Below, piece by piece: positions 8,779-28,358 of a stretch of 32,000 bases of DNA (the stretch's first letter is position 1; each line of letters opens with the position of its first letter). Position numbers and translations under genes: made by a program. The notes under the pieces were generated by a model. The model worked only from the letters and a program-made list of their open reading frames with translations. It was not told the origin of the DNA and did no database searches. Origin of the DNA: Candidatus Iainarchaeum sp. GTDB lineage: Archaea > Iainarchaeota > Iainarchaeia > Iainarchaeales > JAZDEL01. Where the stretch lies: positions 60,001 to 92,000 of the forward strand of contig JAZDEL010000009.1 of the NCBI GenBank assembly GCA_043808785.1. Reading direction: 5' to 3'.

Positions 8779-11478
8779 ATGGGGGCGGGGGAACTGGCTT
8801 TGTTGCTTAAATCCGGAGTTTGGGGCGGGGTTTTGCTTGCAATGGCTGCCCTGGCGTTGTTCGGGGCACTGATTTACGTTGCGCTTCCCGGCTTGGATTT
8901 GCAGGGCACGCCTGCGCAGGGTCAAAACGCGCCTTCGCGGGGCACCGGGCTTTTCACGCTTTTCTTCAGCACATGTAACCCCAACGGAAACTGCCAGCCC
9001 CAGCAGGGCGAGAGCTATTCAACCTGCCCCGAGGATTGCTGCGATGCCGACTGCACGGATTACCAGGACAGCCTCTGCCATGCCGAATGCCAGGGCTACA
9101 ACGGATGCTCGTTCACAAGCGGGTGCAACGGCCTTGCAATAGACACAAATATCTGCATCAGCACAACGCAGCGTGCCGCGTGCTGCTCAGGCTCCGGGCA
9201 GAGCTGCTCGCAGAACCAGTACTGTTCGGGGGGAGGCTGCATTACCTGCTCCACAGTTTGCGACAACACCTGCCAGGGTGCGCAGTGCTACGGCATAGAC
9301 CCGGATTGCGATGCCTCGGGCAACCCCACAGGCCAGTGCTGCGGCAACGGCGTATGCAATGTTGCGGAAACATGCTTCACCTGCAGTGCGGACTGCGGCA
9401 GCCCGGCATGCACCGCGGACGCGAACTGCAATGACGGCAACTCCTCGACAAAGGATGCATGCATAGGCGCAGGCACATGCTCCGCATACTGCCAGAACTG
9501 CTATGTTGCCTGCGACAGCAATGCCTCGTGCAATGACGGCAATTCATTCACGCAGGACACCTGCACTAATCCCGGCACCTGCAATTCCGCGTGCTCTTAC
9601 TGCACGATTAAGTGCAGTTCCGATGCCGCATGCAATGACAATAACTCCTCCACAACCGACTTATGCATAAGCCCGGGTACATGCCCCTCCTACTGCTCTA
9701 ACGCCTCCTCCGGGTGTACGCCGGCCTGCTACACGGACGCGAACTGCAGCGACAGCAATTCGTTCACGCAGGACACATGCACTAACGCGGGCACATGCAC
9801 CGCAGCCTGCCTGCACACCCCATGCACAATCGCCTGCACCTCGAACGCGCAGTGCGACGACAGCAATTCCCTTACTTCGGACACCTGCACTAACGCGGGC
9901 ACATGCACTGCGTCATGCACGCATTCCGCCGCTTCCTGCGAAATCATATGCGCATCGAATGCCGACTGCGACGACGGCATTGCCTCCACAACCGACACCT
10001 GCACAAATGCAGGCACATGCAACGCATACTGCGAGAACACCCTTGCGGAAGAGGGGCAGGATGGGCAGCAGGGCGGGGAGGATAACTGCGCAATCGCATG
10101 CTCCTCTGCGGGGGATTGCGACGACCGCGATGCCCTTACCTCGGATTCCTGCGGCGCTGCCGGAACCTGCAGTGCGGAATGCCGCCATGCGCTTGCCTCC
10201 CCCGCTGCCCTGAACTTCAAAACCTCCCCGCCGAAAACAATACAGCGCGGGCAGAAACTTACGCTTGCTGCCGAGTTCCTTGCCGGCGGCAATCCCGTGG
10301 CAGGCGCCGCACTTGCGCTTTCAGGCACTAAAGGCGAATCCGCAAAGTTCGGGGCAGCAAAAGGCGGAGGCTACCTGGTTTCGTATGAAATCCCCATAGA
10401 TGCCGCGCTCGGGGAGCGCGAGTTCACGGTTTCCGCAAAAAAGGTGCACGCGCTCGGAACGCTTGAGGCCGAGAAAAAGTTCAAGGTTAACGTCGGGCCT
10501 GCGGAGCTCCTTATAACCCTCCTTAAGCCGAAAGCCGCGGACATTAATGCAGGCATCCCTGTAGCCATCGAGGTCGGCATCGCATACCCCTCGGGGGAAG
10601 CCGCAAATGATGCCGAACTGACAGCGGAAATCAACGGCGCGCCCGTTGTTTTCACAAAGCTGCGCGACGGTGTTTATTCCGCGCAGTACACATTCACTTC
10701 CGCGCAGGCGGGCGCGGCAGACCTAACCATGCAGGCAACCGATGCCTACGCAAACCTCGGCTCGAAATCGGTTTCCCTGAATGTGCAGAAGCAGGGCATT
10801 GACCTGCTCCTTGCCCTGCTTTTGGTGCTTTTCGGCGCGCTTGTTCTCGGCATAATAGGCCTCATACTCCTGCTAATAGCCGCGTTGCTTGCCTTTGCCT
10901 CCCTTGCTTATATGAAGGAGCGCAGGGTTGCTGAAATTCTGGCGAGAAAAAAGTGGCTTTTTGCCGCTAAAAATTCCGCAGCTGAAAAGCTCAGGAAAAA
11001 CGAAATCAGCAGGGCGCAATATGATGAACTGTCCGCGAAATACGACTTGGAGATAAAAAAACTTGACGAGTCGCTTGCATTCCTTGAAAAGAGGCGCCCA
11101 ATAGGCGACATATTCCACGATTTGGGGGTTAAGGCAAGGGCATTCATAGATTCGACCGCGCCTGTGCAGCCTAAGCAGGGCGGGGCTGTGCAGGGCAAGA
11201 CTTCAGGGCCTGCACAGGCCGAACCAGGCAAACCATGGCGTGCCAAGCAGGGCGCACAGGCGCAGGCCAAGGCAGCCCCTCCCAAGCCGCTTTCGCCAGA
11301 GGAACGTGCAAAGGTCGATACTGAAATAAACGAAGTTAAGGAAACAATGAAAATCCTTGAAAAGGAATATTTCAAGCGCGCCTTGACGGATCAGGAATAT
11401 AGGCAGAGGATGTTCGACCTGAAGACAAGGCTGCACCTTCTCGAGCTTAAGAAGGGCGGGGGCCTGAGGAAGGGGTAA
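8779..11478 (+). CDS. bitopic Cys-rich repeat surface protein: N-terminal anchor, about 400-aa Cys-rich ectodomain with 7 tandem six-Cys modules, Ig-like region, TM helix, cytoplasmic coiled-coil tail
   Basis: The 899-aa ORF has an N-terminal helix VWGGVLLAMAALALFGALIYVAL. CGNG.C....C..DC-type modules are followed by seven C-x5-C-(N/D)D-x-N-x2-T-x-D-x-C-x5-C-x3-C repeats. The second TM is LLLALLLVLFGALVLGIIGLILLLIAALLAFASLAY. The K/E/Q-rich tail has SHOCT-like motifs. Confidence 0.9.
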   Translation: MGAGELALLLKSGVWGGVLLAMAALALFGALIYVALPGLDLQGTPAQGQNAPSRGTGLFTLFFSTCNPNGNCQPQQGESYSTCPEDCCDADCTDYQDSLCHAECQGYNGCSFTSGCNGLAIDTNICISTTQRAACCSGSGQSCSQNQYCSGGGCITCSTVCDNTCQGAQCYGIDPDCDASGNPTGQCCGNGVCNVAETCFTCSADCGSPACTADANCNDGNSSTKDACIGAGTCSAYCQNCYVACDSNASCNDGNSFTQDTCTNPGTCNSACSYCTIKCSSDAACNDNNSSTTDLCISPGTCPSYCSNASSGCTPACYTDANCSDSNSFTQDTCTNAGTCTAACLHTPCTIACTSNAQCDDSNSLTSDTCTNAGTCTASCTHSAASCEIICASNADCDDGIASTTDTCTNAGTCNAYCENTLAEEGQDGQQGGEDNCAIACSSAGDCDDRDALTSDSCGAAGTCSAECRHALASPAALNFKTSPPKTIQRGQKLTLAAEFLAGGNPVAGAALALSGTKGESAKFGAAKGGGYLVSYEIPIDAALGEREFTVSAKKVHALGTLEAEKKFKVNVGPAELLITLLKPKAADINAGIPVAIEVGIAYPSGEAANDAELTAEINGAPVVFTKLRDGVYSAQYTFTSAQAGAADLTMQATDAYANLGSKSVSLNVQKQGIDLLLALLLVLFGALVLGIIGLILLLIAALLAFASLAYMKERRVAEILARKKWLFAAKNSAAEKLRKNEISRAQYDELSAKYDLEIKKLDESLAFLEKRRPIGDIFHDLGVKARAFIDSTAPVQPKQGGAVQGKTSGPAQAEPGKPWRAKQGAQAQAKAAPPKPLSPEERAKVDTEINEVKETMKILEKEYFKRALTDQEYRQRMFDLKTRLHLLELKKGGGLRKG
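9409..10185 (+). repeat. seven tandem about 34-50-codon six-cysteine modules (in-frame coding repeat)
   Basis: Modules start at C211, C245, C279, C317, C353, C391 and C441. Modules 2, 4 and 5 share long near-identical DNA stretches (ttcacgcaggacac(c/a)tgcactaa... and tgcactaacgcgggcacatgcac). Confidence 0.85.
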
Positions 11479-12357: not shown

Positions 12358-13566
12358 ATGAAACAGGGAAAATATTTCTTCACGTCGGAGTCCGTAACCG
12401 AGGGGCACCCGGACAAGATGTGCGACCAGATAAGCGATGCCGTGCTCGATGCGGTTTTCGAAAAGGACCCTAACGCACGCGTTGCGTGCGAGTGCGTAAC
12501 TAAAACAGGGATTGTTTTCGTCACGGGCGAGATTACCACAAATACCTATGTCGATATCCAGCGCGTCGTGCGCGACACGATAAAGGACATAGGCTACGAC
12601 GACCCTTCTTTCGGGTTCGACGCCGACGGCTGCGGGGTTATTGCCGCAATCTCCGAGCAGAGCCCCGATATATCCATGGGCGTTACAGAGGGCGAGGGGC
12701 ACGAGCAAGGGGCGGGAGACCAGGGAATGATGTTCGGCTACGCGACAAATGAAACCCCCGAATACATGCCTTTGCCTATTGTGCTCGCGCACAAGCTTGT
12801 GAAGAAACTCTCCGAAGTGCGCAGGGCGAAGGAACTCACATATTTGCGCCCGGACGGAAAAAGCCAGGTTACCGTTGAATACGACAGCGGAAAGCCGATA
12901 AGGGTTGACGCTGTAGTGATTGCGGCACAGCACGCGCCCGATATAACGCACGACCAGATTAAGCAGGACATTATAGGGAAAGTGATTAAGCCCGTCTGCG
13001 GCGAGTGGATTGACGGGAAAACAAAATTCTTCGTGAACGAGACGGGAAAGTTCATTGTTGGCGGCCCTGTTGCGGATTCAGGCCTCACGGGGAGAAAGAT
13101 AATCGTGGACACATACGGCGGCCACGGCTCGCACGGAGGGGGGTGCTTCTCGGGAAAGGACCCCTCGAAAGTGGACAGGAGCGGGGCATATGCTGCGCGC
13201 TACATTGCGAAGAACATAGTCGCTGCCGGCCTCGCGGACAAGTGCGAGGTGCAGTTGGCATACGCAATCGGCGTTGCCGAACCTGTCAGCATTCTGGTGC
13301 ACACCTTCCGCACCAACAAAATCCCCGAGGAAAAAATCTCGGAGTTGGTTCGCAAACACTTCCCCCTGAAGCCGAGGGCGATAATTGACCATCTCAAACT
13401 GCGCAGGCCGATTTTCAGGAAAACCGCGGCATTCGGGCATTTCGGCAGGAACGACCCCGATTTCACATGGGAGAAAACGGATAAAGTCGAGGCGCTGAAG
13501 AAGGATGCAGGGCACCTGCACAAGCCAGCAGTGAGCGGGGATAAGGTGCCGCTGGACGGCGCCTGA
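12358..13566 (+). CDS. metK: S-adenosylmethionine synthetase, bacterial/eukaryotic type
   Basis: [37 protein letters not shown] and [50 protein letters not shown] are near-identical to the E. coli MetK signatures. GGAGG at 12346-12350 lies 7 nt upstream of the ATG. Confidence 0.97.
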
Positions 13567-15075: not shown

Positions 15076-15543
15076 ATGCTCGATGACTTTCTGGAGGCGA
15101 ACGGCCTCAAGGCGGAGCTTTTAGTTCCCAAGCGCCCCCTGCGCACCGCTCACGACATTCCGCGCTCGCTTGGGGTCGAAGCCGCAAATGTTGCGCAATG
15201 CGTTCTCGCGCTTGTAGGTACGGCAAAGCGCGCGGAGCACAACGAGGCAATCCTGATTGTCCTTCCTCTCGCGAAAAAATTCGGTGAGGAGGAACTGCAC
15301 GAACTTCTTGGTGCATCAATAGGGGTTCGCTTTGCAACAGAGCACGAAACAGAGGACCTTACAGGCTACCCCGCGGAATTTGTCCCCGTGGTCAGCGTTT
15401 ACGGCGTGCGCACCCTCATAGATGCGGAACTCATGAAAAAGGAATTCATCTACTGCGCAGGCGGGGAAGCGGAGCACGTTCTGAAAATCACGCCCGCGGA
15501 ACTGAAGGAGAACACGGAAGGGATTGAGGAGATTGATGCATGA
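15076..15543 (+). CDS. YbaK/EbsC-type aminoacyl-tRNA deacylase domain protein
   Basis: The 155-aa ORF has the layout typical of the YbaK/ProRS-associated editing domain: KCVLALVG...ILIVLPLAKKFGEEELHELLG...VRFATEHETEDLTGYPAEFVPVVSVYGVRTLIDAEL...IYCAGGEAEHVLKITPAEL. Confidence 0.7.
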   Translation: MLDDFLEANGLKAELLVPKRPLRTAHDIPRSLGVEAANVAQCVLALVGTAKRAEHNEAILIVLPLAKKFGEEELHELLGASIGVRFATEHETEDLTGYPAEFVPVVSVYGVRTLIDAELMKKEFIYCAGGEAEHVLKITPAELKENTEGIEEIDA

Positions 15544-17255
15544 AAAAGTCCCCTGCAGCGGCAAAGGCGGAGAAAATAACCGCCATCTTTACTGACCTTG
15601 ACAACACACTCTGGAGCGGCATTATTGCCGAGGGGCAGGAACCAGTGCTCAGGGAAGATTACTATGCATTCCTGAAAGGGCTTTACGCGAAGGGAATCCA
15701 GATTTTTGCGGTTTCAAAGAACGAGGAAGCGGACCTTGAAAAGGCATTCCGCAAACTCGGCGTGGACAAGGAAATGTTCACAATGGTTGTCGCCAACTGG
15801 GATGCAAAATACCTGAACATAGAGCGCCTGATAAGGCAGGCAAACATCCGCCGGGAAACTGCAGTGTTCATAGATGACAGCCCTTTTGAGAGGGCTGAGG
15901 CTGAAAAAGCCCTGCCCGAAATCCACGTGCTTGATGAAAATGGCTGGCGTGCGGTTCTTGCGAATGAATATGTGAGGGGCAAAAAGGAACAGCCCGCATC
16001 GGAAATAAGGGAGCGCATAAACCGCTACCGCACCGCAATTGCGGCACACCGCGGGGAGCATGCGGAGAAAGAGAGCATTGAATTCCTGCGCAGCCTCGGG
16101 CGCGAACTCAGCATAGGGGAAATTCCCGCGGATAACCTTGACAGGTTTGCGCGCCTGCTTGTGGATACGCACAGGATAAATTTCAATCCCGGGAAGTTCG
16201 GGGATTACGGCAAGGCGCTCGATTACCTGCATCAGCGCATAAATGCGGGGGACAGGCTTTATGCGGTTTCAACGCGCGAGAGCGGCGTTTCCCTGGGCTT
16301 AACAGGCGCGCTTGTGGTTGATGTAAAAGGAAATACTGCAAGCATTGTTGACGGCACATTTTCCTGCGGGATTCTCGGGCGCGGGTTCGAGGGCAAATCC
16401 ATACTTGCACTTGCGGACATTTTACGCAAACAGGGGCTGGAGAGACTGGATATCTTTGTGACCCTTACTGCAACAAACTCGCGTGTGAAGGAAATCCTCC
16501 TTGCTTTGGGATTTTCAGAGGGCAGGCGCATTTCCGGAAAAGCGGGGACAAAGGTCGTTTATTCTGCGGATTTACGCGCTTTCAGGCCCAGAAATGATTT
16601 CGGCTGGATAAAGGTTATTGCCGGTCCGCCAGAAATTAAATATACGGGTCACCCGTTTGTTATTTCATTTTTCGAGGAGAATGTCCTGCCGCTTATCGGG
16701 CAGGGGTTCGGCATTGTGAACCTGGGCTCGGCGCGCGGGGAGTCTATAGGCCATGCTGAGGAAAAGAAGCGGGATGAATTCTATAAACTCCTGCACCAAA
16801 GGGATGTTAAATACACAAAAATAGACGTCGAACATTATCCCGAAGAAAATAATATCGTTGCTGATGCGGAAGACCTTCCCGCCGTGCTCCAAGATGAAAG
16901 CCAGGATTTGGTGCTCGCATTTGAGCTTCTGGAGCACGCGCGCCACTTCTGGAACGTTGTTACTGAAATGGTACGCATATGCAGAACGGGCGGTTACATT
17001 CTGGTTTCAGTGCCCTCCTTTAACTACCCGAAGCATGAATACCCCATCGACCTGTGGCGCATAGGCCCGAAAACCCTGAAGTCGTTCTTTCCCGCTGAAT
17101 ATTTCGAAACAATAAAGTTCGCAACCGAAGGGCAAAAGAACGCACCGCGCAGGGCAATAATCCTCGTGCGCAAGAAAAAGCAATTCACAAAAAAGTTTTC
17201 GATGCCTAATGGCGGGAAAACCGACTGGAAGACGGGATTGACTGTTTTTCTCTGA
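15540..17255 (+). CDS. FkbH-like HAD-IIIC phosphatase / GNAT-like domain fused to a class I SAM-dependent methyltransferase
   Basis: The FkbH/HAD-IIIC motifs are IFTDLDNTLWSGIIAEG, KGIQIFAVSKNEEADLEKAF and NWDAKYLNIERL...AVFIDDSPFERAEA. The C-terminal IVNLGSARGE ... DLVLAFELLEHARHFWNVVTEMVRICRTGGYILVSVP is methyltransferase-like. The start overlaps the upstream stop (ATGA at 15540-15543). Confidence 0.85.
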   Translation: MKKSPAAAKAEKITAIFTDLDNTLWSGIIAEGQEPVLREDYYAFLKGLYAKGIQIFAVSKNEEADLEKAFRKLGVDKEMFTMVVANWDAKYLNIERLIRQANIRRETAVFIDDSPFERAEAEKALPEIHVLDENGWRAVLANEYVRGKKEQPASEIRERINRYRTAIAAHRGEHAEKESIEFLRSLGRELSIGEIPADNLDRFARLLVDTHRINFNPGKFGDYGKALDYLHQRINAGDRLYAVSTRESGVSLGLTGALVVDVKGNTASIVDGTFSCGILGRGFEGKSILALADILRKQGLERLDIFVTLTATNSRVKEILLALGFSEGRRISGKAGTKVVYSADLRAFRPRNDFGWIKVIAGPPEIKYTGHPFVISFFEENVLPLIGQGFGIVNLGSARGESIGHAEEKKRDEFYKLLHQRDVKYTKIDVEHYPEENNIVADAEDLPAVLQDESQDLVLAFELLEHARHFWNVVTEMVRICRTGGYILVSVPSFNYPKHEYPIDLWRIGPKTLKSFFPAEYFETIKFATEGQKNAPRRAIILVRKKKQFTKKFSMPNGGKTDWKTGLTVFL

Positions 17256-17273
17256 ACCTGCCCTATTTGTCCC

Positions 17274-17320
17274 AGTTAACCCCACAAATCTCGAACGTTG
17301 TTGTTTTTTGTAGGGTTAAC
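17274..17320. repeat. 47-bp palindromic element, copy A (AGTTAACCCCACAAA-N17-TTTGTAGGGTTAAC)
   Basis: The inverted arms match in 13 of 14 positions. It lies between the convergent ends of the HAD-methyltransferase gene and the 78-aa ORF. It has the same length and arm sequence as the element at 18542-18588. Confidence 0.8.
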
Positions 17321-17338
17321 CTAAAATAAGTTCCTTCC

Positions 17339-17575
17339 CTATCTATCGTATATTTCATCCCTTTTCCCGACTAAAATTTTCCCCATGGCAAAGCCTTTCC
17401 GCATGCGCCTTATCTGCCGTTCCATTGCGAGTTCCCTTTCGGGGCGCTCCTCCCTTAGCCCTACTGTTGAAGCACCCCTTGCAATCCCTCTCGCATCCTT
17501 GATGTCCCCGACGGGCACCGCTATGGCAACCCCGCCCTTCTCCAGAACCACAATTCGTTTTTTGCCTTTTTTCAT
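17339..17575 (-). CDS. 78-aa basic protein, unknown function (co-transcribed partner of Fic)
   Basis: The ATG lies 18 nt after the Fic stop and is preceded by GAAGGG. The sequence MKKGKKRIVVLEKGGVAIAVPVGDIKDARGIARG...GKRDEIYDR belongs to no family I can name. Its compact size and C-terminal ...EIYDR resemble small archaeal antitoxin-like proteins only loosely. Confidence 0.5.
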   Translation of the reverse strand: MKKGKKRIVVLEKGGVAIAVPVGDIKDARGIARGASTVGLREERPERELAMERQIRRMRKGFAMGKILVGKRDEIYDR

Positions 17576-17593
17576 GCGAACGCCCTTCGTGCC

Positions 17594-18535
17594 TCAAACA
17601 TATTTCACATAAACCCCGAAGAACTTATCAAATGTCTTCTTGTATTTCTCAAGCATGAACCTTTCGAGGTTCGCGGTGTAGCCGTTGTCGAAATCCTGCA
17701 GGCATTTCAGGTATGCCGTGCGCTGGCTTTTCCTGATTATGAGCGGGGCATAGCCCGCGTTCACAAGCGCGACATTTATCAGGAATCTCCCCACGCGGCC
17801 GTTGCCGTCGTCGAAAGGGTGGATTTTCTCAAACCTGCCGTGGAAGAGCGCGGCTTTCTGCAGGGGGTGCATCTTTTTCTCCCCGCCAAACCAATCCATG
17901 AGTTTTTTCATTTCCTCCCCGACCTTTTCCGGAGCCGCTGTTTCAACTTCCCTGCCGAGCAGGAAGTTAGGAATTTTTTTATAGCCTGTTTCGATGCCCA
18001 TGTCCTTTACCAGGATTTTGTGCATCTTTATTATGTCCGCCTCCTGTGCCCTGAATTTCTTCTTCAGTATGAGGCCGACCACCTCGCGGCTGTTCCTGGT
18101 TTCATAAACCTCCCTCAGGTCAGTTCCCTCGGGAGCCTTGCCCTCGAACAGCACTATTGCGACATCCTTCAAAGTGAGCGAGTTGCCTTCCAGGGCGTTC
18201 GACTCATATGTGAAGTTTACAGTGAACCTGTCGAACAGGTCCTGAAGCTGCTTCTTCGTGAGTTTCGAGATTATTTTCTTGTATTCCCGCCTTGTTTTCT
18301 CAAGTTTGGCGATTTGCTCCCTTGTAAAAATGCCGTCCGTCCCGAACCTTTCGAGCGCGGCTTTTGCGCGCAGTTCGTTCTCCTTTTTCGAGAAGTATTC
18401 CCTCAGGGCTGGCGTAAGGGCTTTTTTGTCCGTGCGCCTGCCTATCTTCACGACCCTGCCGTTCTCCAGCCTGACCGAATGCACGGCATAGCGGTACTTT
18501 TTCCCCTTTATCCTCTTCTCGGTGAAATAAACCAT
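17594..18535 (-). CDS. Fic/DOC-family protein (AMPylase-type), class II with internal inhibitory motif
   Basis: The Fic active-site motif HPFDDGNGRVGR lies at nt 17786-17821. The inhibitory-helix motif (S/T)xxxE(G/N) is present as YESNALEGN. The track ORF starts at GTG 18553, but that GTG lies inside the promoter palindrome only 10 nt from the TATA box. ATG 18535 (MVYFTEKRIKG) is 28 nt from the box. Confidence 0.9.
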   Translation of the reverse strand: MVYFTEKRIKGKKYRYAVHSVRLENGRVVKIGRRTDKKALTPALREYFSKKENELRAKAALERFGTDGIFTREQIAKLEKTRREYKKIISKLTKKQLQDLFDRFTVNFTYESNALEGNSLTLKDVAIVLFEGKAPEGTDLREVYETRNSREVVGLILKKKFRAQEADIIKMHKILVKDMGIETGYKKIPNFLLGREVETAAPEKVGEEMKKLMDWFGGEKKMHPLQKAALFHGRFEKIHPFDDGNGRVGRFLINVALVNAGYAPLIIRKSQRTAYLKCLQDFDNGYTANLERFMLEKYKKTFDKFFGVYVKYV

Positions 18536-18541
18536 ACTAAA

Positions 18542-18588
18542 AGTTAACCCCACAGATTATTTAAATATATGGTTTTTGTGGGGTTAAC
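18542..18588 (-). promoter_or_regulatory. 47-bp palindromic element, copy B, enclosing the Fic TATA box (candidate operator/promoter)
   Basis: AGTTAACCCCAC-AGATTATTTAAATATATGGTTTTT-GTGGGGTTAAC has perfect 11-bp inverted arms. The spacer contains TATTTAAATA, centred about 28 nt upstream of ATG 18535. Confidence 0.7.
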
Positions 18589-18604
18589 GGAAATGCGCGG
18601 AAAA

Positions 18605-19837
18605 TCAGCCGAACGCCCCTAATATCTTTTCAGTTGTCCGTGCAAGCAAATCAATCTCTTCCTTAGTGTTGTACAAATAGAAACTCGCCCTGCACAGGCC
18701 CTCGCTGTTGAAGCCGCTTACCAAAGGTTCGGCACAGTGCATTCCCGAGCGGATTGCGATGTTCTCCGCCTCGTCAAGCGCAAGCGCGAGCTCGTGCGGC
18801 TGCAATTTAAGGGCGTCGAACATTGTAATTGCGCCCTGTTTCTCGGCGTCTTTCGGGCAGTACAGCCTGATTTTTCCCCTACCCTCAAGTTCGCCCATAA
18901 CCTTCAGCGCATGCCTTGTGAGGTCTTTGCCGTGCGCGTGCACATTATCCATCCCTATTCTCTGCAGGTAATCCACAGCAGCGCCAAGCCCTATCCCTCC
19001 CGCAATATGCGGCGTCCCTGCCTCGAACTTGTACGGCAGCACATTCCATGTCGCGCTATGCAGTTTAACCTCGTGTATCATGTCCCCGCCGTAGAGGAAG
19101 GGCGGCATTTTTTCGAGCAGTTCCTTCCTGCCGCAGAGCACGCCTATTCCTGTCGGCCCGAGCATCTTGTGCCCTGAGAACGCGTAAAAATCCGCGCCTA
19201 TTTTTTTCACGTCCACGGGCATGTGGGGAACAGCCTGCGCGCCGTCGACAACAAACAATGCGCCGTTCTCGTGCGCGATTTTCCCTATCTCGCGCACGGG
19301 GTTAATGCTCGCCACGGTGTTCGAGGCGTGCATAACCGAAACCAGGCGCGTGTTTTTGTTTATTTTCTTCTTGAGGTCTTCCATGTCGAGGGTGTAGTCC
19401 ACATTGAGGCCTGCAAACTCGAGCTTTGCCTCCCCCTTCCTCTCGAGAAACTGCCACGGCACGATGTTCGAGTGGTGCTCCATTTTTGTGACAACGATAT
19501 TGCTTCCTGCACCGAAAATTCCCTGTTCGCGCAGGGAATACATCAAAAGGTTCAGGCTTTCCGTTGTGTTGCGCGTGAAGATTGTTTGCTCAGGGCTTGC
19601 ACCGACGAACTTGCCTACCCTTTTGTGCGCATCTTCCCACTCGCGCGAGGCGTCCTCGCTCATCCTGTGCACGCCGCGGTGTATGTTTGCCGTAAACTCC
19701 GTGTAATAGCGGTTCATTGCATCGAGAACCTGCCGCGGTTTCAGGGAAGTTGCGGCATTGTCAAGGTAGGTTATCGGCTTGCCGTTAACCCTGCGCTGCA
19801 AAACGGGGAAATCCGCGCGGATTTTTTCGGTGTTCAT
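18605..19837 (-). CDS. sufS: cysteine desulfurase, SufS/CsdA-type (class V aminotransferase)
   Basis: The signatures are FPVL...ITYLDNAATSLKP, NIHRGVHRMS, the PLP-lysine motif SGHKMLGPTGIGVL and the active-site loop RSGMHCAEPL. Confidence 0.95.
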   Translation of the reverse strand: MNTEKIRADFPVLQRRVNGKPITYLDNAATSLKPRQVLDAMNRYYTEFTANIHRGVHRMSEDASREWEDAHKRVGKFVGASPEQTIFTRNTTESLNLLMYSLREQGIFGAGSNIVVTKMEHHSNIVPWQFLERKGEAKLEFAGLNVDYTLDMEDLKKKINKNTRLVSVMHASNTVASINPVREIGKIAHENGALFVVDGAQAVPHMPVDVKKIGADFYAFSGHKMLGPTGIGVLCGRKELLEKMPPFLYGGDMIHEVKLHSATWNVLPYKFEAGTPHIAGGIGLGAAVDYLQRIGMDNVHAHGKDLTRHALKVMGELEGRGKIRLYCPKDAEKQGAITMFDALKLQPHELALALDEAENIAIRSGMHCAEPLVSGFNSEGLCRASFYLYNTKEEIDLLARTTEKILGAFG

Positions 19838-22939: not shown

Positions 22940-23398
22940 GTGCCTGCGGAATGGCTGAAAAAGGAAATCGATTTTTACAAAAACATGCGTTCGCCGCTGA
23001 TACCTTTGCTGCACGAAATCCGCAGGAAGGAGGGGCACCTTTCGCGCGAGAGCCTTGTTTTCATTTCCCGCGAGCTCGGCATACCGTTAAGCCACATATA
23101 TGAGGCAGCGACCTTTTACGCTGAATTCAACCTGAACCCCAAAGGAAAAAACGTCCTCAGGGTTTGCACAGGCACGACCTGCAATGTAAAGGGCGGGAGC
23201 TTCTGCCTGCGCTTCCTGGAGAGGGTTCTTGAAATAAAGCCTGGAGAAACGACCGATAACGGCAAGTTCACTCTTGAAACAGTCAACTGCTTCGGCGCAT
23301 GCAGTGCCGCGCCGGTTATTGAAATAAACGGCGTCCTGCACACAAAGATGGGTTTGCAGGAACTTAAGGAAATAATTTCAAAGATGGGGGCGAAGTGA
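22940..23398 (+). CDS. hydC: NuoE/HydC-type thioredoxin-like [2Fe-2S] subunit
   Basis: LIPLLHEIRRKEGHLS...ISRELGIPLSHIYEAATFYAEF is present. The cluster ligands are CTGTTC (C-x4-C) and CFGACSAAP (C-x3-C). The start is GTG. Confidence 0.9.
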   Translation: MPAEWLKKEIDFYKNMRSPLIPLLHEIRRKEGHLSRESLVFISRELGIPLSHIYEAATFYAEFNLNPKGKNVLRVCTGTTCNVKGGSFCLRFLERVLEIKPGETTDNGKFTLETVNCFGACSAAPVIEINGVLHTKMGLQELKEIISKMGAK

Positions 23399-25342
23399 AT
23401 GGGCAGGGGAAAAGCCGCAGGCGCGAGGGTTAAGCGCACAGCAAAAAAAATTACTAGGCGCGCCACGGGCGTAAAGCACGCAGCGGGGGCGAAGCACGCC
23501 CACAAGGCAAAACACCTGCGCAGCCATATCCGCATAGGCAGTTCGAAGCTCAGGCCGCGTGCCGGCGTTGGAAAAAAACGGGGGCAAATCCAGGTTTCAG
23601 TCGGCGCAGCAAGCTGCGGCATTTCCGCAGGCGCGCTTGCGGTTATTGCCGAGTTCGAGAAGCGGGGCGTGAAGCCGAAGCGCGTAGGGTGCATCGGCAT
23701 GTGCCACGCGGAACCGATTGTCGAGGTGAAATACGGCGATGGGGAGACGCTTGTTTTCGCGCATGCAAACCCTGCGGACGCGAGGAAAATCGCGCACGGC
23801 TTCGGCTTCCTTGAGAAGGGGAAGTTCATTGCGAAAAGGAAGGGCGGAAAAAAGGTTATCGGCGGGCATTACCTTGATGAACTGCCTTTTTTCAAACTTC
23901 AGGAGCGCAGGCTTACCTGGCGCTGCGGAAGGGTAAGCCCCGACAGCCTTGATGATTACCTTGCACACCGGGGTTTCACCGCGCTGCGCAAGGCGCTGAA
24001 AATGAAGCCCGAACGCATTGTTGCGGAGGTAAAGGATTCAAAACTCAGGGGCAGGGGCGGAGCCGCATTCCCCACTGGCCTGAAATGGGAGTTCATGCGA
24101 AAAAGCCCCGAAAAGGAGCGCTACCTGATATGCAATGCGGATGAAGGGGATCCTGGCGTGTTCTCAAACCGCATACTGTTTGAATCAGACCCTTTCGCGG
24201 TTATTGAGGGAATGGTTATCGCAGGTTACGCGCTGGAAGCCACAAAAGGCTTCATTTACATCCGCGCGGAGTACGGGAAATCCATAACCCACCTGAAGCA
24301 CGCGCTTGCGCTTGCAAGGGAAAACAACTTTTTGGGCAGGAAAATCCTCGGCTCGAAATTTTCATTTGACATAGAAATCCGCGAGGGCGCGGGCGCCTAT
24401 GTATGCGGCGAGGAAACCGCGTTAACGCGCAGCATTGAAGGGCTTTCAGGCAGGCCTGTGCCGAGGCCGCCTTTCCCGACCGAGAAAGGGCTCTGGGGAA
24501 AGCCCACGGTGATTCAGAACACGGAAACCCTTACAAATATCCCTTATATTGTGCTCAATGGTTCCGCATGGTTCGGGGAGAAGGGGGTTTCGCACTGCCC
24601 CGGCACGAAGATATTTTCAATAAGCGGTGATATAGCGCACACGGGATATGTGGAGGTCCCGCTCGGGGTTAAGTTAGGCCATCTGCTCGAGCTGCTTGGA
24701 ATTAAAACCCACGAACTGAAAGCCGTTCACCTCGGCGGCCCGAGCGGGGGCTGCCTGCCCATAGCCCTGCACAACACGACGCTCGATTACGATTCGTTGT
24801 GCAATGTGGGCGCTACGGTAGGTTCTGGCAGCATAATTTTCCTCGGAAAGAAGCGCAGCATACCCGAATTCGCGCACAAGTATGTCGGGTTCTTTGTTTC
24901 CGAATCCTGCGGCAAGTGCGTGCCCTGCAGGGAAGGGACGATGCGTTTGCTTGAAACCCTCGATAGGGTTCTTGCAGGCGGGGGAAAAATTTCTGATTTG
25001 AAGGAACTTGACGATTTGAGCGGGAGCATGAAGGATTCAGCGCTCTGCGGCCTCGGGCAGGCGGCGCCCAACGCACTGCAGAGCACGCTGAAATATTTCA
25101 GGGAGGAATACCTTGCGCACATAAGCGGCATGCCCTCGGTTGAAAGCCCGTTTTCCGAATTCATAATAAGCAAACCGCTCTGCAACGGCTGTGATTTGTG
25201 CGTGCGCGTCTGCCCCACTGACGCAATCACGGGCAGAAAGGGCGAGCTGCACGCGATAATCCGGGAGAAGTGCATATGGTGCGGGCACTGTGTGGAAGCG
25301 TGCCCTGTTAAGGCTATACATCTTGAGAGGGTGAAGGTTTGA
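23399..25342 (+). CDS. hydB: NuoF/HydB-type NAD(P)H-binding flavoprotein subunit with N-terminal thioredoxin-like domain and C-terminal 2x[4Fe-4S] ferredoxin domain
   Basis: The signatures are GRGGAAFPTGLKWEF, ICNADEGDPG, GAGAYVCGEETAL, SCGKCVPCREGT, CNGCDLCVRVCP and CIWCGHCVEACP. The ATG directly abuts the hydC stop (TGAATG). The first 62 residues form a Lys/Arg/Ala/His-rich extension. Confidence 0.93.
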   Translation: MGRGKAAGARVKRTAKKITRRATGVKHAAGAKHAHKAKHLRSHIRIGSSKLRPRAGVGKKRGQIQVSVGAASCGISAGALAVIAEFEKRGVKPKRVGCIGMCHAEPIVEVKYGDGETLVFAHANPADARKIAHGFGFLEKGKFIAKRKGGKKVIGGHYLDELPFFKLQERRLTWRCGRVSPDSLDDYLAHRGFTALRKALKMKPERIVAEVKDSKLRGRGGAAFPTGLKWEFMRKSPEKERYLICNADEGDPGVFSNRILFESDPFAVIEGMVIAGYALEATKGFIYIRAEYGKSITHLKHALALARENNFLGRKILGSKFSFDIEIREGAGAYVCGEETALTRSIEGLSGRPVPRPPFPTEKGLWGKPTVIQNTETLTNIPYIVLNGSAWFGEKGVSHCPGTKIFSISGDIAHTGYVEVPLGVKLGHLLELLGIKTHELKAVHLGGPSGGCLPIALHNTTLDYDSLCNVGATVGSGSIIFLGKKRSIPEFAHKYVGFFVSESCGKCVPCREGTMRLLETLDRVLAGGGKISDLKELDDLSGSMKDSALCGLGQAAPNALQSTLKYFREEYLAHISGMPSVESPFSEFIISKPLCNGCDLCVRVCPTDAITGRKGELHAIIREKCIWCGHCVEACPVKAIHLERVKV

Positions 25343-27135
25343 GTAAGGGCAAAAAGCGCGCCGCCGGTTCGGGCTTAAAAAATAAAATGCGCGCCAAGAG
25401 GGCGGCAGGCGGCGGAACAGTTGCAATAAAGGTCGACGGCAGGGAATATTCGGTTAAGCAGCAGTTCCTCCTCGAGGCGCTGAAGGGCATAGGCATAAAA
25501 GTGCCCGCCCTCTGCCATCACCCCGACCTTCCCGCGCTTTCAAACTGCCGCCTCTGTTTGGTCGAAGTGAACGGGCAGGTGAAAACCTCGTGCAACCAGC
25601 GCGTTTTCGGGGGCATGGATGTTGCCACCAGCAGCGCCCGTATCCTGCGGGAGCGGAGGACAAACCTCGAGCTTATCCTGGCAAACCACCCCTTCGAGTG
25701 CGAGGATTGCAGGAGCAACGGGAGGTGCGAACTGCAGGGGCTTGCGGAGGAATTCGGAATCAGCGGATTCAAGATAGCGGGAAAAAAGCGGAACCTGCCG
25801 AAGGACGAGAGCTCGAATGCAATCGTTTTCGACCCTAAAAAGTGCGTGCTCTGCGAGCGCTGCACCGCTGTCTGCGACAGGCAGAAGACAAGCATACTTT
25901 CCCTGATGAACCGCGGCTGGGAAACGATTGTTTCCCCTGTCGGCGGCGCGAAGCTTGCGGACACGCCCTGCGTTTCCTGCGGGAGGTGCACGCTGCACTG
26001 CCCCACAGGCGCGTTCTCGGAGCGCGATGAGGTTGAGGCGGTTCTTGCGGAACTCAACAACCCGAAAAAGAAGGTTGTTGTGCAGATTGCGCCGTCCATA
26101 CGCGTCAGCCTCGGGGAATATTTCGGGATGAAACCCGGAACAATCGCAACCAAAAAAATCGCGACAGCACTGAGGATGTGCGGCTTCGACGCCGTGATTG
26201 ACACCTCTCTCGGGGCGGACATCACGATTGTCGAGGAAGCCACGGAACTTGTGGAGCGCGTGAAAAGCGGGGCATGCCTGCCGCAGTTCACCTCGTGCTG
26301 CCCCGGCTGGGTTTATTATGCGGAATTTTTCCACCCCGAACTTACCGAGCACCTCTCCTCGGCAAAAAGCCCGCACATGATGCTCGGCGCAATAGTGAAA
26401 ACCCATTACGCACAGCAAACCAAAACAAACCCGAAGGACATTGTCGTTGTTTCGATAATGCCCTGCACGGCAAAAAAGGCGGAATCCGACCGCGTTGAAC
26501 ACAAAACGAACGGCATGCTTACAGTGGATTACGTGCTCACAACCCGCGAGGCCGCGAGGATGATGAAAATACTTGGGGTGGATTTGGCGGCGGCGGGGGA
26601 ATCCGGCTTCGACAGCCCGCTGGAAACAATCACGGGCGCGGGGGAAATATTTGCATCCACGGGCGGGGTAATGGAGGCGGCACTGCGCACAGCGCACTTT
26701 TACATTACGGGAAAGGAACTGCCGGATGCAAGGCTCGATTTCAGGGAAGTGAGGGGGCTTGAGGGGGTCAAAAAGGCGACGGTGAACCTCGGGGGGAAGA
26801 AACTGAATGTTGCCGTGGCGCACGGCCTCGAGAATGCGGAAAAACTGATTGAAGAGGTGCATAAAAACCCGGGATGTTTCGATTTCATCGAAATAATGGC
26901 CTGCCCGGGGGGATGTATAGGAGGGGGAGGGCAGCCTGTGCCGCACAGCATGGAAAAGGTCAGGGCACGCATGGAAGGGATATATGCCGCTGACAGGGGC
27001 GCTAAAATAAGGAGAAGCCACCAGAACCCCGCAATAAGGGAAATTTACAAAAAATTCCTGCACAAGCCGGGTTCGGAGAGGGCGCACAAGCTTTTGCACA
27101 CGCGGTATGTGAAGAGGGACAGGTTTAATCCCTAG
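25339..27135 (+). CDS. hydA: [FeFe]-hydrogenase catalytic subunit (NuoG-like N-terminal FeS domains plus H-cluster domain)
   Basis: The H-cluster motifs are TSCCPGW (26290-26310), MPCTAKKAE (26458-26484) and EIMACPGGCIGGGGQP (26890-26937). The N-terminal FeS motifs are C..C in CRLCLVEV, HPFECEDCRSNGRC, CVLCERCTAVC and CVSCGRCTLHCP. The start is either TTG 25339, overlapping the hydB stop, or ATG 25387. Confidence 0.95.
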   Translation: MSKGKKRAAGSGLKNKMRAKRAAGGGTVAIKVDGREYSVKQQFLLEALKGIGIKVPALCHHPDLPALSNCRLCLVEVNGQVKTSCNQRVFGGMDVATSSARILRERRTNLELILANHPFECEDCRSNGRCELQGLAEEFGISGFKIAGKKRNLPKDESSNAIVFDPKKCVLCERCTAVCDRQKTSILSLMNRGWETIVSPVGGAKLADTPCVSCGRCTLHCPTGAFSERDEVEAVLAELNNPKKKVVVQIAPSIRVSLGEYFGMKPGTIATKKIATALRMCGFDAVIDTSLGADITIVEEATELVERVKSGACLPQFTSCCPGWVYYAEFFHPELTEHLSSAKSPHMMLGAIVKTHYAQQTKTNPKDIVVVSIMPCTAKKAESDRVEHKTNGMLTVDYVLTTREAARMMKILGVDLAAAGESGFDSPLETITGAGEIFASTGGVMEAALRTAHFYITGKELPDARLDFREVRGLEGVKKATVNLGGKKLNVAVAHGLENAEKLIEEVHKNPGCFDFIEIMACPGGCIGGGGQPVPHSMEKVRARMEGIYAADRGAKIRRSHQNPAIREIYKKFLHKPGSERAHKLLHTRYVKRDRFNP

Positions 27136-27151
27136 TGCGGCGCAAAGAATA

Positions 27152-27159
27152 TTTTTTTT
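27152..27159 (+). terminator. oligo-T tract (T8) 17 nt after the hydA stop
   Basis: ATTTTTTTTA follows directly after the operon. Archaeal intrinsic termination typically uses such T-runs. Confidence 0.45.
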
Positions 27160-27199
27160 AGGGTTTTGGAAGTCAAAATTAAGTGAAGGATGTGCTGAA

Positions 27200-28348
27200 A
27201 TGAAAAAGAAGTCGATAAAGTTCGGATGCGACGGCTTGACTTTTGATAAGGAACTTACTCTCGAATATGTCAACAACGGCTTGGTTTTGCCCGTAGATTT
27301 TGCCCTGCCTGGCAAATGTTTGAACAGTTGTGTCTACTGCGGATATTATCAGGTAAATACGGAAGGCAAATTAAAAACCGATGAAATAAAAAATATCATC
27401 GGCCAACTTTCAGAACTTAAGGCAAAAAGTTTAAGGATTGTCGGCGAGGGCGAGCCATTCCTCAGGAAAGATATTCTTGAATTATTGGAGTACGCCCATT
27501 CCCGTGGCATTAAATCGGTAGTGTTCAGTTGCGGCGACGTTCTTGGCAATGACGAGCTGGCAAAAAAAATTCACGGCATTAGCGGGGAGCAGATAATCGG
27601 CAAACTTAAAGAACTGGGCGTGACAATCATCCTGAAATATGAAAAAGAATTTCAGGATGATATTTCCGGGCGCCAAGGATATTCTGCGATGAGAAATACT
27701 GCCCTTGCAAGATTGATTAAAGCGGGATTTAACAGGGAAAGCCCCACCCGCCTGGCTTTCGGCACGGTTATGACACGGTACAACAAAGAATACATTCCCA
27801 AGGTTTATGAATTTGCCCTGAGGCAGAACATTTTCCCTCTTTTGTGCCCCCTGATGCCTATAGGTAAAATGAGGGACAAAAAAGAAAGAGATAAGGTGAA
27901 ACTGAATGCCGAAGAGGTAAATGAGATAGCCGTGGAATTGCACAAGATTAATCACAGGTTCGGCATCCCGTATCGGGGCCCTTCGGATTTTCCCGGAACA
28001 ATCCCCTGCTTTATCGCAAAGTTCGGGATGTATCTTACAGATGTCGGTGATATTTACCCCTGCGTAGCCGAGGAAAAAATCGGCAATACGAGGGAAATGC
28101 AATTGAAAGATGCCTGGGAAATGCTGAAAGAATATAAAAAATCCCATTGGCCTGAAATGCGTTCCAGAGGGCAGTGTTATATGAAGAGAAAAATGGGGAT
28201 AATTCCTGCGGATTATGGTGAAGTTATAGATTCCAGGGTTAAAGAATATCTTGCGAAAAATCGGGGCGAATTTAATACTGCACGCAAGGAAAAACTTGGC
28301 GGCCAGGATTGGGACTATTTGGCGGAGCCGACAATTTTTCACTGCTAA
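27200..28348 (+). CDS. radical SAM enzyme with C-terminal Cys-containing (SPASM/twitch-like) extension, function unknown
   Basis: The C-x3-C-x2-C motif is GKCLNSCVYCGYY. A MoaA/PqqE-like LRIVGEGEPFLRKDILELLEYA follows. Later cysteines occur in TIPCFIAKFGMYLTDVGDIYPCVAEE and GQCYMK. The gene is clearly AT-richer than hydA (spot counts 24/60 G+C at 27201-27260 versus 34/60 at 26281-26340). Confidence 0.85.
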   Translation: MKKKSIKFGCDGLTFDKELTLEYVNNGLVLPVDFALPGKCLNSCVYCGYYQVNTEGKLKTDEIKNIIGQLSELKAKSLRIVGEGEPFLRKDILELLEYAHSRGIKSVVFSCGDVLGNDELAKKIHGISGEQIIGKLKELGVTIILKYEKEFQDDISGRQGYSAMRNTALARLIKAGFNRESPTRLAFGTVMTRYNKEYIPKVYEFALRQNIFPLLCPLMPIGKMRDKKERDKVKLNAEEVNEIAVELHKINHRFGIPYRGPSDFPGTIPCFIAKFGMYLTDVGDIYPCVAEEKIGNTREMQLKDAWEMLKEYKKSHWPEMRSRGQCYMKRKMGIIPADYGEVIDSRVKEYLAKNRGEFNTARKEKLGGQDWDYLAEPTIFHC

Positions 28349-28358
28349 AGAACAGCAC

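Follow-up and report, generated by a model that had tools for sequence, protein, structure and literature searches.

A long-spaced palindrome around the TATA box of Fic genes in DPANN archaea and its putative role as an autoregulatory operator

The Fic locus and its two palindromes

The analyzed window, a stretch of 32,000 nucleotides from contig JAZDEL010000009.1 of the archaeon Candidatus Iainarchaeum sp. (positions 60,001 to 92,000 of the contig), encodes a protein of the Fic family and contains two palindromic elements of 47 bp each, referred to here as copy A (17274-17320) and copy B (18542-18588). Copy B occupies the promoter of the Fic gene, downstream of the neighboring sufS gene. Copy A is found past a 78-codon open reading frame (ORF) located 3′ of Fic, within the 83-bp gap between this ORF and a convergently transcribed gene for an HAD/FkbH-methyltransferase (Table 1). 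This gene map and the sequences of both elements agree with a preliminary description of the locus, which had been made from the DNA letters and their ORFs.

The arms of both elements consist of 12 bp, GTTAACCC(C/T)ACA, and are placed in inverted orientation on the two sides of a 22-bp gap. In an inverted-repeat scan, copy B was recovered with 12 of 12 complementary nucleotides and a 22-nt gap and copy A as a repeat of 14 nt with 93% complementarity. The Fic-distal arm is followed by an A-tract in both elements, which therefore share one polarity and are direct copies of an asymmetric element that has symmetric arms. With at most one mismatch, the half-site GTTAACCCCACA is present at four places in the window, all of which are the arms of copies A and B. 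Allowing two mismatches adds two more matches, which is the chance level (mean of 1.5), and the observed total at two mismatches was not reached in any of 100 shuffled sequences. There is no further copy of the element in the 32-kb window; repetitive extragenic palindromic (REP) sequences or miniature inverted-repeat transposable elements would be dispersed over a genome in many copies with no relation to one gene.

The spacer of copy B contains the TATA box of the Fic promoter, whose center is 27.5 nt away from the Fic ATG. Contrary to the preliminary description, this box does not lie symmetrically between the arms, being separated from the proximal arm by 3 nt and from the distal arm by 9 nt. 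The mechanical ORF call begins at a GTG codon within an arm of copy B (18553), and comparison with the orthologues puts the true start of Fic at the ATG at position 18535 (MVYF...).

Table 1. Genes and elements at the Fic locus (positions in the 32,000-nt window)
Feature	Position	Strand	Remarks
tRNA-editing domain gene	15076-15543	+	
HAD/FkbH-methyltransferase gene	15540-17255	+	
Copy A	17275-17320	-	TATA-less palindrome with a diverged center; distal-type arm 17309-17320, with the CCCTACA variant; proximal-type arm 17275-17286
78-aa ORF	17339-17575	-	3′ of Fic
Fic gene (313 aa)	17594-18535	-	PF02661, 1e-20
Copy B, proximal arm TGTGGGGTTAAC (Fic sense)	18543-18554	-	Between TATA box and ATG; 7-nt spacer to ATG
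TATA box TATTTAAATA of Fic promoter	18558-18567	-	Within spacer, 3 nt from proximal arm
Copy B, distal arm GTTAACCCCACA (Fic sense)	18577-18588	-	Followed by A-tract 18573-18576
sufS	18605-19837	-	TIGR01979, 1.9e-154; upstream neighbor of Fic

A promoter architecture shared across DPANN archaea

A genome-wide pattern search, of the kind suggested in the preliminary description, was performed with GTTAACCCNACA-N12-40-TGTNGGGTTAAC in one genome per prokaryotic species and returned 14 loci, seven from bacteria and seven from DPANN archaea. The palindromes at the seven DPANN loci have total lengths of 44 to 46 nt. Five of them end 7 to 8 nt 5′ of a Fic orthologue (52 to 83% amino acid identity to the window protein), and at a sixth locus, L011, the N terminus of Fic is found at the cut end. 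The corresponding scan of metagenomes yielded 28 loci, including 19 with an adjacent Fic gene, 4 with a Fic N terminus at the contig edge, 2 orphan palindromes, and 3 unrelated GC-rich palindromes. The latter three and the seven bacterial matches, which differ in gap length and lack both a TATA box and a Fic gene, were rejected as unrelated to the DPANN type. Altogether, 29 of the 32 DPANN-type palindromes from genomes and metagenomes directly precede an orthologous Fic gene, at distances of 4 to 14 nt and with approximately 48 to 96% amino acid identity. Their hosts belong to the Micrarchaeota, Iainarchaeota/Diapherotrites, Woesearchaeota, and unclassified archaea. Each of the matching species-representative genomes gave one palindrome; the count is one per genome in 13 of the 14 sets of loci, and two palindromes are present only in the window and at locus L043. 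This distribution, a single match per genome and nearly always beside Fic, refutes the notion of a generic REP-like repeat, which the preliminary description had named as a possible objection to its own interpretation.

The layout of the 24 unique promoters is nearly invariant: the distal arm is followed by an A-tract, a TATA-like box (TTTAAATA or TTTATAAATA), the proximal arm, a short T-rich spacer, and the ATG. The gap between the arms, for which the pattern permitted 12 to 40 bp, is always 20, 21, or 22 bp. The TATA-like box ends 2 to 5 nt before the proximal arm in 21 of these promoters, and the distance from the proximal arm to the ATG is mostly 7 nt. In the promoters of the family, the center of the TATA box is located 26 to 28 nt from the ATG, so that the mRNA can be predicted to be leaderless, and the proximal arm covers the region from the TATA box to the start site. 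Eight more distant orthologues (56 to 75% identity) from Altiarchaeota, Nanoarchaeota, Pacearchaeota, and several Diapherotrites were fetched by protein identity and not by the pattern; all eight have an inverted repeat at the same position and with the same spacing in their promoters. The suggestion that copy B serves as an operator, previously made from this one locus, is strongly supported by the recurrence of the same palindrome-TATA-ATG geometry in front of orthologous Fic genes in many DPANN lineages. In this putative promoter-operator of 44 to 46 bp, the half-sites are identical while the identity of the linked protein falls to ∼50%, and it is found in several phyla. To our knowledge, the cis-regulatory elements of DPANN archaea are almost uncharted. 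The literature search retrieved no relevant paper for the half-site string and no paper on the DPANN Fic protein. The viral collection contained no such palindrome, and its only Fic relatives (at most 36% identity) all lack the N-terminal domain discussed in the next section.

The sequences of the arms change in a coordinated manner, as exemplified by the pairs CTCCACA/TGTGGAG in L046, TTTAACCTTAC/GTAAGGTTAAA in L137, and TTCCCCCACA/TGTGGGGGAA in L136. Identical changes in both arms were counted 11 times and changes in one arm 9 times (P<5e-5 for random placement, with lineages that are not fully independent). Since the arms change together, it is the symmetry itself that is under selection. 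Such a symmetry could reflect the formation of nucleic acid hairpins, with copy A as a 3′-end stabilizer or terminator between the convergent genes and copy B as a terminator of sufS. Indeed, both elements can be folded into stems of 12 bp (z-scores of -3.3 to -4.8), and the changes in the arms compensate for each other with respect to pairing. The one C-to-T change of copy A leads to a G-U pair in RNA of the Fic sense, and T-runs flank copy A. However, the distal arm of the promoter copies lies upstream of the TATA box and is not transcribed with Fic, which makes an RNA hairpin of these copies impossible in the Fic transcript. At several loci (L011, L046, and L048), the upstream gene is transcribed divergently and no transcript crosses the element. 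Archaeal transcription termination relies on T-runs and not on hairpins; a terminator scan called neither element, and an Rfam search of positions 16500 to 19500 produced no match. Further, the presence of the same arms at promoter and nonpromoter copies argues for one common reader, a DNA-binding protein. Hairpin formation is thus a very unlikely explanation of the two elements, and the simplest candidate for the reader of the promoter palindrome would be a homodimeric DNA-binding protein.

The Fic protein and the candidate reader of the palindrome

The window protein belongs to a family for which 1,911 homologues were found. Its Fic fold is evident from the match to PF02661 (Table 1), from the match to the PDB profile of CdFic (hmmsearch, E = 9e-35), and, for the AlphaFold2 model (pLDDT, the predicted local distance difference test score, of 89), from the Foldseek match to FICD (E = 4.9e-13; template modeling score of 0.67). 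The catalytic motif HPFDDGNGRVGR at residues 239 to 250, which follows the HxFx(D/E)GNGRxxR consensus, is invariant in 40 homologues. The internal motif SNALEG (S112-N-A-L-E116-G117), an inhibitory motif of the (S/T)xxxE(G/N) type with invariant S, E, and G residues, is located in the same polypeptide N-terminally to the core, within the helix 94-115 of the model. Both motifs had been correctly read in the preliminary description. Judging by sequence and model, the protein is a member of the class II AMP-transferase family with an in-cis inhibitory helix and can be predicted to transfer AMP. In both sequence and fold, its catalytic core and inhibitory helix match those of FICD/HYPE, CdFic, and BT_2513. 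However, the latter proteins have either tetratricopeptide repeats or no N-terminal extension, and we know of no operator described for any of them.

The matches to the CdFic and FICD profiles start only at about residue 75, and no counterpart of residues 1 to 75 was found among solved structures. The N terminus is modeled with high confidence (pLDDT of ∼90) as an antiparallel three-stranded sheet (residues 2-9, 12-22, and 28-34) followed by a long helix. The sheet contains the invariant residues Y14, Y16, and R22, and the mean net charge of this domain is +8.6 over 38 residues. No helix-turn-helix (HTH) domain was detected in the protein, which ends 60 residues past the Fic motif.

The palindrome accompanies Fic into unrelated surroundings, among them the vicinity of sufS and of genes for an ABC transporter, for IMPDH, for enolase, and for a Xer-like recombinase. 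No gene besides Fic is common to the palindrome loci that were compared. Given that the element and the gene are inherited as well as transferred together across DPANN phyla and that no other gene is consistently linked to them, the putative binder is most likely Fic itself. In the interpretation favored here, with a probability of approximately 0.6, the Fic promoter has copy B as its operator, most likely bound by a Fic dimer that acts as an autorepressor, and copy A is a second site without a promoter. Two identical 12-bp half-sites in inverted orientation, 32 to 34 bp from center to center, would then be offered to the dimer about three helical turns apart, one of them upstream of the region of the TFB recognition element (BRE) and the TATA box and the other one between the TATA box and the start of the leaderless mRNA. 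By occupying both arms, a sequence-specific dimer would clamp the TATA region and keep TBP, TFB, and RNA polymerase from assembling, resulting in negative control. The Fic dimer could contact the DNA through the conserved and highly basic N-terminal three-stranded sheet. Fic would thus combine a repressor, an inhibitory helix, and an AMP-transferase in a single chain, analogously to the bacterial protein CccR. The closest structures, those of the class II relatives FICD and CdFic, may be counted as a precedent for the dimer.

CccR from Yersinia pseudotuberculosis is a class II Fic protein with a DNA-binding domain, and its dimer holds the DNA-reading helices 70 Å apart; it represses its own promoter by binding to AGATAATCAT-N26-ATGATAATCT (10-N26-10), with a footprint of 46 nt (PMC9755527). 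The DPANN Fic is similarly a class II protein with an in-cis inhibitory motif, and a long-spaced inverted repeat is present in its own promoter, in all 24 unique promoters and all 8 that were fetched by protein identity. The repeats are also of similar size, 10-N26-10 with 46 nt protected in CccR and 12-N20-22-12 with 44 to 46 nt in the DPANN Fic, and both would suit a dimer with DNA-binding parts ∼70 Å or more apart. In contrast to CccR, which binds DNA by its C-terminal HTH, the extra domain of the DPANN Fic is an N-terminal basic sheet with no fold match, and its promoter is archaeal, with a TATA box within the spacer and a leaderless mRNA. Moreover, CccR is an effector of the type VI secretion system with demonstrated binding, whereas DNA binding by the DPANN Fic is a prediction. 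With these differences in mind, the DPANN Fic may represent an archaeal variant of the CccR-type self-regulating Fic that has a different, unclassified candidate DNA-binding domain. It would extend the idea of Fic as its own transcription factor from one bacterial effector to ∼1,900 archaeal proteins, points to a possible new small DNA-binding domain, and provides a testable case of archaeal repression by TATA clamping. Another parallel is AimR, the arbitrium regulator of SPbeta, which, as cited in PMC9755527, is a dimer that recognizes inverted repeats with a spacer of ∼25 bp. In both cases, a long-spaced inverted repeat is read by a dimer (here, a candidate one), but the protein family, the host, and the function of AimR are unrelated to those of the DPANN Fic.

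An autoregulated toxin-like gene with a palindromic operator is a familiar concept. [quoted passage not shown] The DPANN Fic resembles these systems in being an enzyme of the Fic/Doc fold that is found among TA genes and is encoded by a small mobile unit, the promoter of which has a palindromic operator (here, a putative one). However, it has no separate antitoxin, and the (S/T)xxxE(G/N) motif is part of Fic itself. The 78-aa ORF, which is located downstream of Fic, does not provide a small conserved antitoxin like those of FicT-FicA or Phd-Doc: its product has only two homologues among 5.8e9 proteins, namely itself and its counterpart in L043. The comparison of these two copies (dN/dS, the ratio of nonsynonymous to synonymous divergence, of 0.23 and no indels) indicates that the ORF is a real, lineage-restricted gene. 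It has no match in Pfam or NCBIfam, and no (S/T)xxxE(G/N) motif could be read from its sequence. Given the lack of a Fic-inhibitory motif in this protein, the module is not a pair of the FicT/FicA type. At loci L013 and L044, a truncated remnant of the 78-aa ORF is fused to Fic, and outside the window and L043 the ORF is absent or truncated at all Fic loci even though the palindrome is kept. As the product of a lineage-restricted ORFan, the 78-aa protein cannot be the general binder.

The main rival to autorepression by Fic is an operator bound by a host transcription factor of DPANN archaea or by a small partner, such as the 78-aa protein. This would account for the orphan palindromes, L009, L026, and L035, that keep their arms without an adjacent Fic gene, and for the N-terminal domain of Fic that has no recognizable DNA-binding fold. 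The window encodes regulators of the TrmB and HTH-CBS types that might serve as such factors, and the co-occurrence of copy A with an intact 78-aa gene, which is limited to the lineage of the window and L043, would suit a partner protein. However, the narrow distribution of the 78-aa protein and its absence or truncation at palindrome-bearing Fic loci disfavor it as the binder. A host factor that acts across phyla should have more than one target per genome, whereas each genome had one match, and the site moves with Fic into unrelated contexts. A host or partner binder is therefore judged to be an unlikely, albeit serious, alternative.

Several observations weigh against Fic as the autorepressor and need to be set beside the linkage data. 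The palindromes at L009, L026, and L035 are conserved in the absence of an adjacent Fic gene, and if the respective genomes lack Fic altogether, another protein must bind there. The role of the N-terminal domain in DNA binding is a candidate one, suggested by its charge and conservation. A Foldseek search with the model of this domain gave no significant match (best E = 0.075, with only weak PC4/Pur-alpha-like similarity), and a Pfam search at E values of up to 10 produced just a chance match to DUF7177. No convincing covariation was seen between the residues of this domain and the C/T variant of the arms. In addition, repression rather than activation is assumed from the geometry of the promoter and the precedent of toxin modules. 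Finally, the pattern scan finds only exact arms, which biases the sample toward them.

The orphan palindromes of L009 and L026 are 90% identical over 49 nt, as compared to 80% identity in the neighboring guaA gene. These two Micrarchaeia share a hotspot 3′ of guaA (L009, 1571-4100; L026, 509-1280) that contains this TATA-less palindrome, more conserved than guaA itself. In L026, the palindrome is followed by VapBC. In L009, an MNT/HEPN pair lies in front of it, with a second, 36-nt copy of the guaA 3′ end ahead of this pair, and the TA right after the palindrome carries an inserted IS630-like element. The palindrome of L035 is identical to that of L038 in 52 of 52 positions, and Fic is replaced there by 156 unrelated nucleotides; the break coincides exactly with the proximal arm's outer edge. 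Global alignment rejected the idea that these 156 nt are a decayed Fic gene. A decayed gene is found in L021 (742-1080), where an intact palindrome and TATA box are followed by a Fic sequence with residues ∼13 to 138 deleted (MVHLSRKRIKGK fused to DLREVYETRNSREV).

Copy A, mobility of the Fic gene, and other features of the window

Copy A shares its arms and the polarity of its A-tract with copy B but lacks a TATA box. A search for a second palindrome at all Fic loci, with up to 5 mismatches, revealed it only in the window and at L043, the closest relative of the window (96% Fic identity). Between these two, the arms of copy A are identical in 24 of 24 positions, including the CCCTACA variant, compared to ∼64% identity in the 22-nt center and ∼72% in the surrounding region. 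The identity of the arms next to a diverged center argues for selection on the arms of copy A. In the loci L013 and L044 (83 to 84% Fic identity and the same sufS synteny), there is one palindrome and no copy A. A TTTT run directly before copy A in the Fic sense and a T6 run inside it in the opposite sense are both kept in L043; the latter run (17304-17309 on the plus strand) is found 49 nt past the stop codon of the HAD-methyltransferase gene. With these T-runs on its flanks, transcripts from both sides probably end at or before copy A. The most economical reading of copy A is a second putative binding site of the same protein, which has arisen or been retained only in this lineage and probably represents either an auxiliary site or a relic. 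As an auxiliary operator, it might form a loop to copy B, 1268 bp away, or act as a roadblock at the convergent junction; otherwise, it could be an insertion relic that is still bound. It might also function as a 3′ hairpin in RNA, but this is less probable.

The preliminary description had viewed the two copies as delimiting a two-gene module in the manner of terminal repeats and had considered them potential recombination sites of a mobile Fic cassette. The mobility of Fic is borne out by its unrelated contexts and by flanking repeats, but the role of the palindromes in it is not: as far as the data go, Fic appears to be mobile by means other than these palindromes. Direct repeats flank the block of palindrome and Fic in four independent lineages; they comprise 19 to 76 nt, are different each time, and lie 16 to 100 nt outside the palindrome. 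In L013 and L044, a 36-nt duplicate of the sufS 3′ end follows the Fic block. In L019, the repeat is made up of 19 nt from the 3′ end of an epimerase gene. The 76-nt repeat of L039 comprises the promoter of a Xer-like recombinase gene and its first 18 codons, and the repeat of L136 has 39 nt. The two copies of the sufS end in L044 differ at five positions, each of them synonymous in the sufS frame, which means that both have evolved as coding sequence. This repeat fits a single-crossover (Campbell-type) insertion of a circle that carried a foreign sufS end, rather than a target-site duplication followed by drift, and in this lineage the Fic block has the sufS 3′ end as its insertion point. No direct repeats were found around the cassette of the window itself when 250 nt upstream were compared with 1,500 nt downstream. 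For the empty-site comparison, the sequence of L140 stops 194 nt past sufS. In L141, sufS is present but Fic and the palindrome are not; with synteny not conserved, this locus is weak support for insertion at sufS.

A direct role of the palindromes as recombination sites (attC-like, dif-like, or terminal repeats) that mobilize a cassette of Fic and the 78-aa gene would be in line with the mobility of Fic, its direct repeats in four lineages, the break at the edge of the proximal arm in L035, and the IS630-like element at a TA beside the palindrome in L009. In addition, a Xer-like recombinase gene adjoins the palindrome in woesearchaeal loci, and the outer arms ending in GTTAAC together with the variable center bear a superficial resemblance to attC. 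However, two copies of the palindrome are present in a single lineage. At L013 and L044, where Fic occupies the same place beside sufS, there is one palindrome and the 78-aa ORF is truncated. Insertion boundaries, where visible, are the direct repeats derived from the ends of neighboring target genes, outside the palindrome. Neither does the divergence between the window and L043 follow a cassette between the two copies: the identity profile is high across copy B and Fic only, and synonymous divergence (dS) is 0.28 for Fic as compared to 0.58 for the 78-aa gene, which like copy A shows ∼72% identity, and 0.84 for sufS. Hence, the recently exchanged or most constrained unit appears to be copy B with Fic and not the stretch from copy B to copy A. 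The ∼3-fold-lower dS of Fic relative to sufS suggests a recent homogenization or transfer of copy B with Fic or an unusual constraint on its silent sites. Breakpoints at the edges of the palindromes were rejected, since the homology of the window and L043 extends 16 to 19 nt past both of them and the neighboring indels comprise whole genes. No integrase or transposase domain was detected in the window ORFs scanned. The 20- to 22-bp spacer and the perfect, bulge-free stem fit neither the core sites of tyrosine recombinases nor attC, and recombination would leave the fixed TATA/ATG geometry unexplained. We therefore regard a role of the palindromes in recombination as quite doubtful.

Comparison with known recombination sites leads to the same assessment. 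Archaeal integrons exist (PMC9668308), and TA genes are common among integron cassettes. Like attC, the DPANN element is an imperfectly conserved palindrome with outer ends that resemble GTTRRRY/RYYYAAC, a variable center, and a toxin-type gene beside it. Its surroundings differ from an integron in having one site per genome, with no array, and no integrase domain among the window ORFs scanned. The attC sites have imperfect stems with extrahelical bases and R″/R′ cores RYYYAAC / GTTRRRY and are located at the 3′ ends of ORFs. In contrast, the DPANN site is found 5′ of Fic with a TATA box inside, forms a perfect 12-bp stem without extrahelical bases, and has GTTAAC(C/T), with one mismatch to GTTRRRY. 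It also differs from the Xer/dif sites (pdif-like, two 11-bp arms with a 6- to 8-bp center) in that its arms are 20 to 22 bp apart.

The whole-gene indels that distinguish the window from L043 extend from stop codon to stop codon at overlapping start and stop codons. The HAD/FkbH-methyltransferase gene is present only in the window, and a gene for a 281-aa protein with no Pfam match only in L043 (1492-2337), between sufS and copy B. The latter gene is not a relocated copy of the methyltransferase gene (BLASTP E = 0.14). In the woesearchaeal loci L011, L029, L030, L039, and L042, the gene for the Xer-like tyrosine recombinase is divergent from Fic and 45 nt away from the palindrome. The two 76-nt copies in L039 are 82% identical and both keep the ATG, and the duplicate directly follows the Fic stop codon. 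Fic loci are often found among other TA or defense genes, such as a second Fic_N+Fic protein with a PIN gene in L046 (1009-3679), MNT/HEPN directly after Fic in L139 (4084-5054), and HicA, a serine recombinase, and ParB near Fic in L048 and L049 (L049, 5538-5774).

The flanking repeats, being diverged copies of the ends of neighboring genes, suggest how a single toxin-like gene could move between reduced genomes without a recombinase of its own. A broader and more speculative scheme, which is possible but has the odds against it, would regard the DPANN-wide Fic family as one-protein combinations of toxin, antitoxin, and repressor, in which a hitherto undescribed, basic three-stranded sheet domain of 38 residues reads the 12-bp half-site and the Fic dimer clamps the TATA box of its own leaderless gene. 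As a cassette lacking an integrase, such a self-regulated 1-kb gene would pass from one archaeal phylum to another and become part of chromosomes by single crossovers between carried pieces of conserved gene ends (sufS, guaA-type, epimerase, and xer) and the corresponding genes of the recipient, with the TATA-less copies, such as copy A, as extra docking sites.

Some other features of the window deserve mention. A perfect 13-nt inverted repeat, ATCATCCTGAAAT-N10-ATTTCAGGATGAT, is located at 27626-27661 in a stretch of low GC content (0.44 to 0.46, positions 27000-28500) that overlaps a radical-SAM/SPASM gene (27200-28348). An 899-aa ORF with no Pfam match (8779-11478) contains 5 or 6 tandem Cys-rich modules of ∼108 to 114 nt with 60 to 74% identity (9403-10038), and its product is probably a secreted or surface protein of repetitive structure. 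At 12358-13566, this archaeal metagenome-assembled genome encodes an S-adenosylmethionine synthetase of the bacterial type, MetK (PF00438, PF02772, and PF02773), which may have been acquired horizontally. The block of three genes at 22940-27135 resembles an electron-bifurcating [FeFe] hydrogenase, with a NuoE-like 2Fe-2S protein, a NuoF-like flavoprotein, and HydA large- and small-subunit domains.

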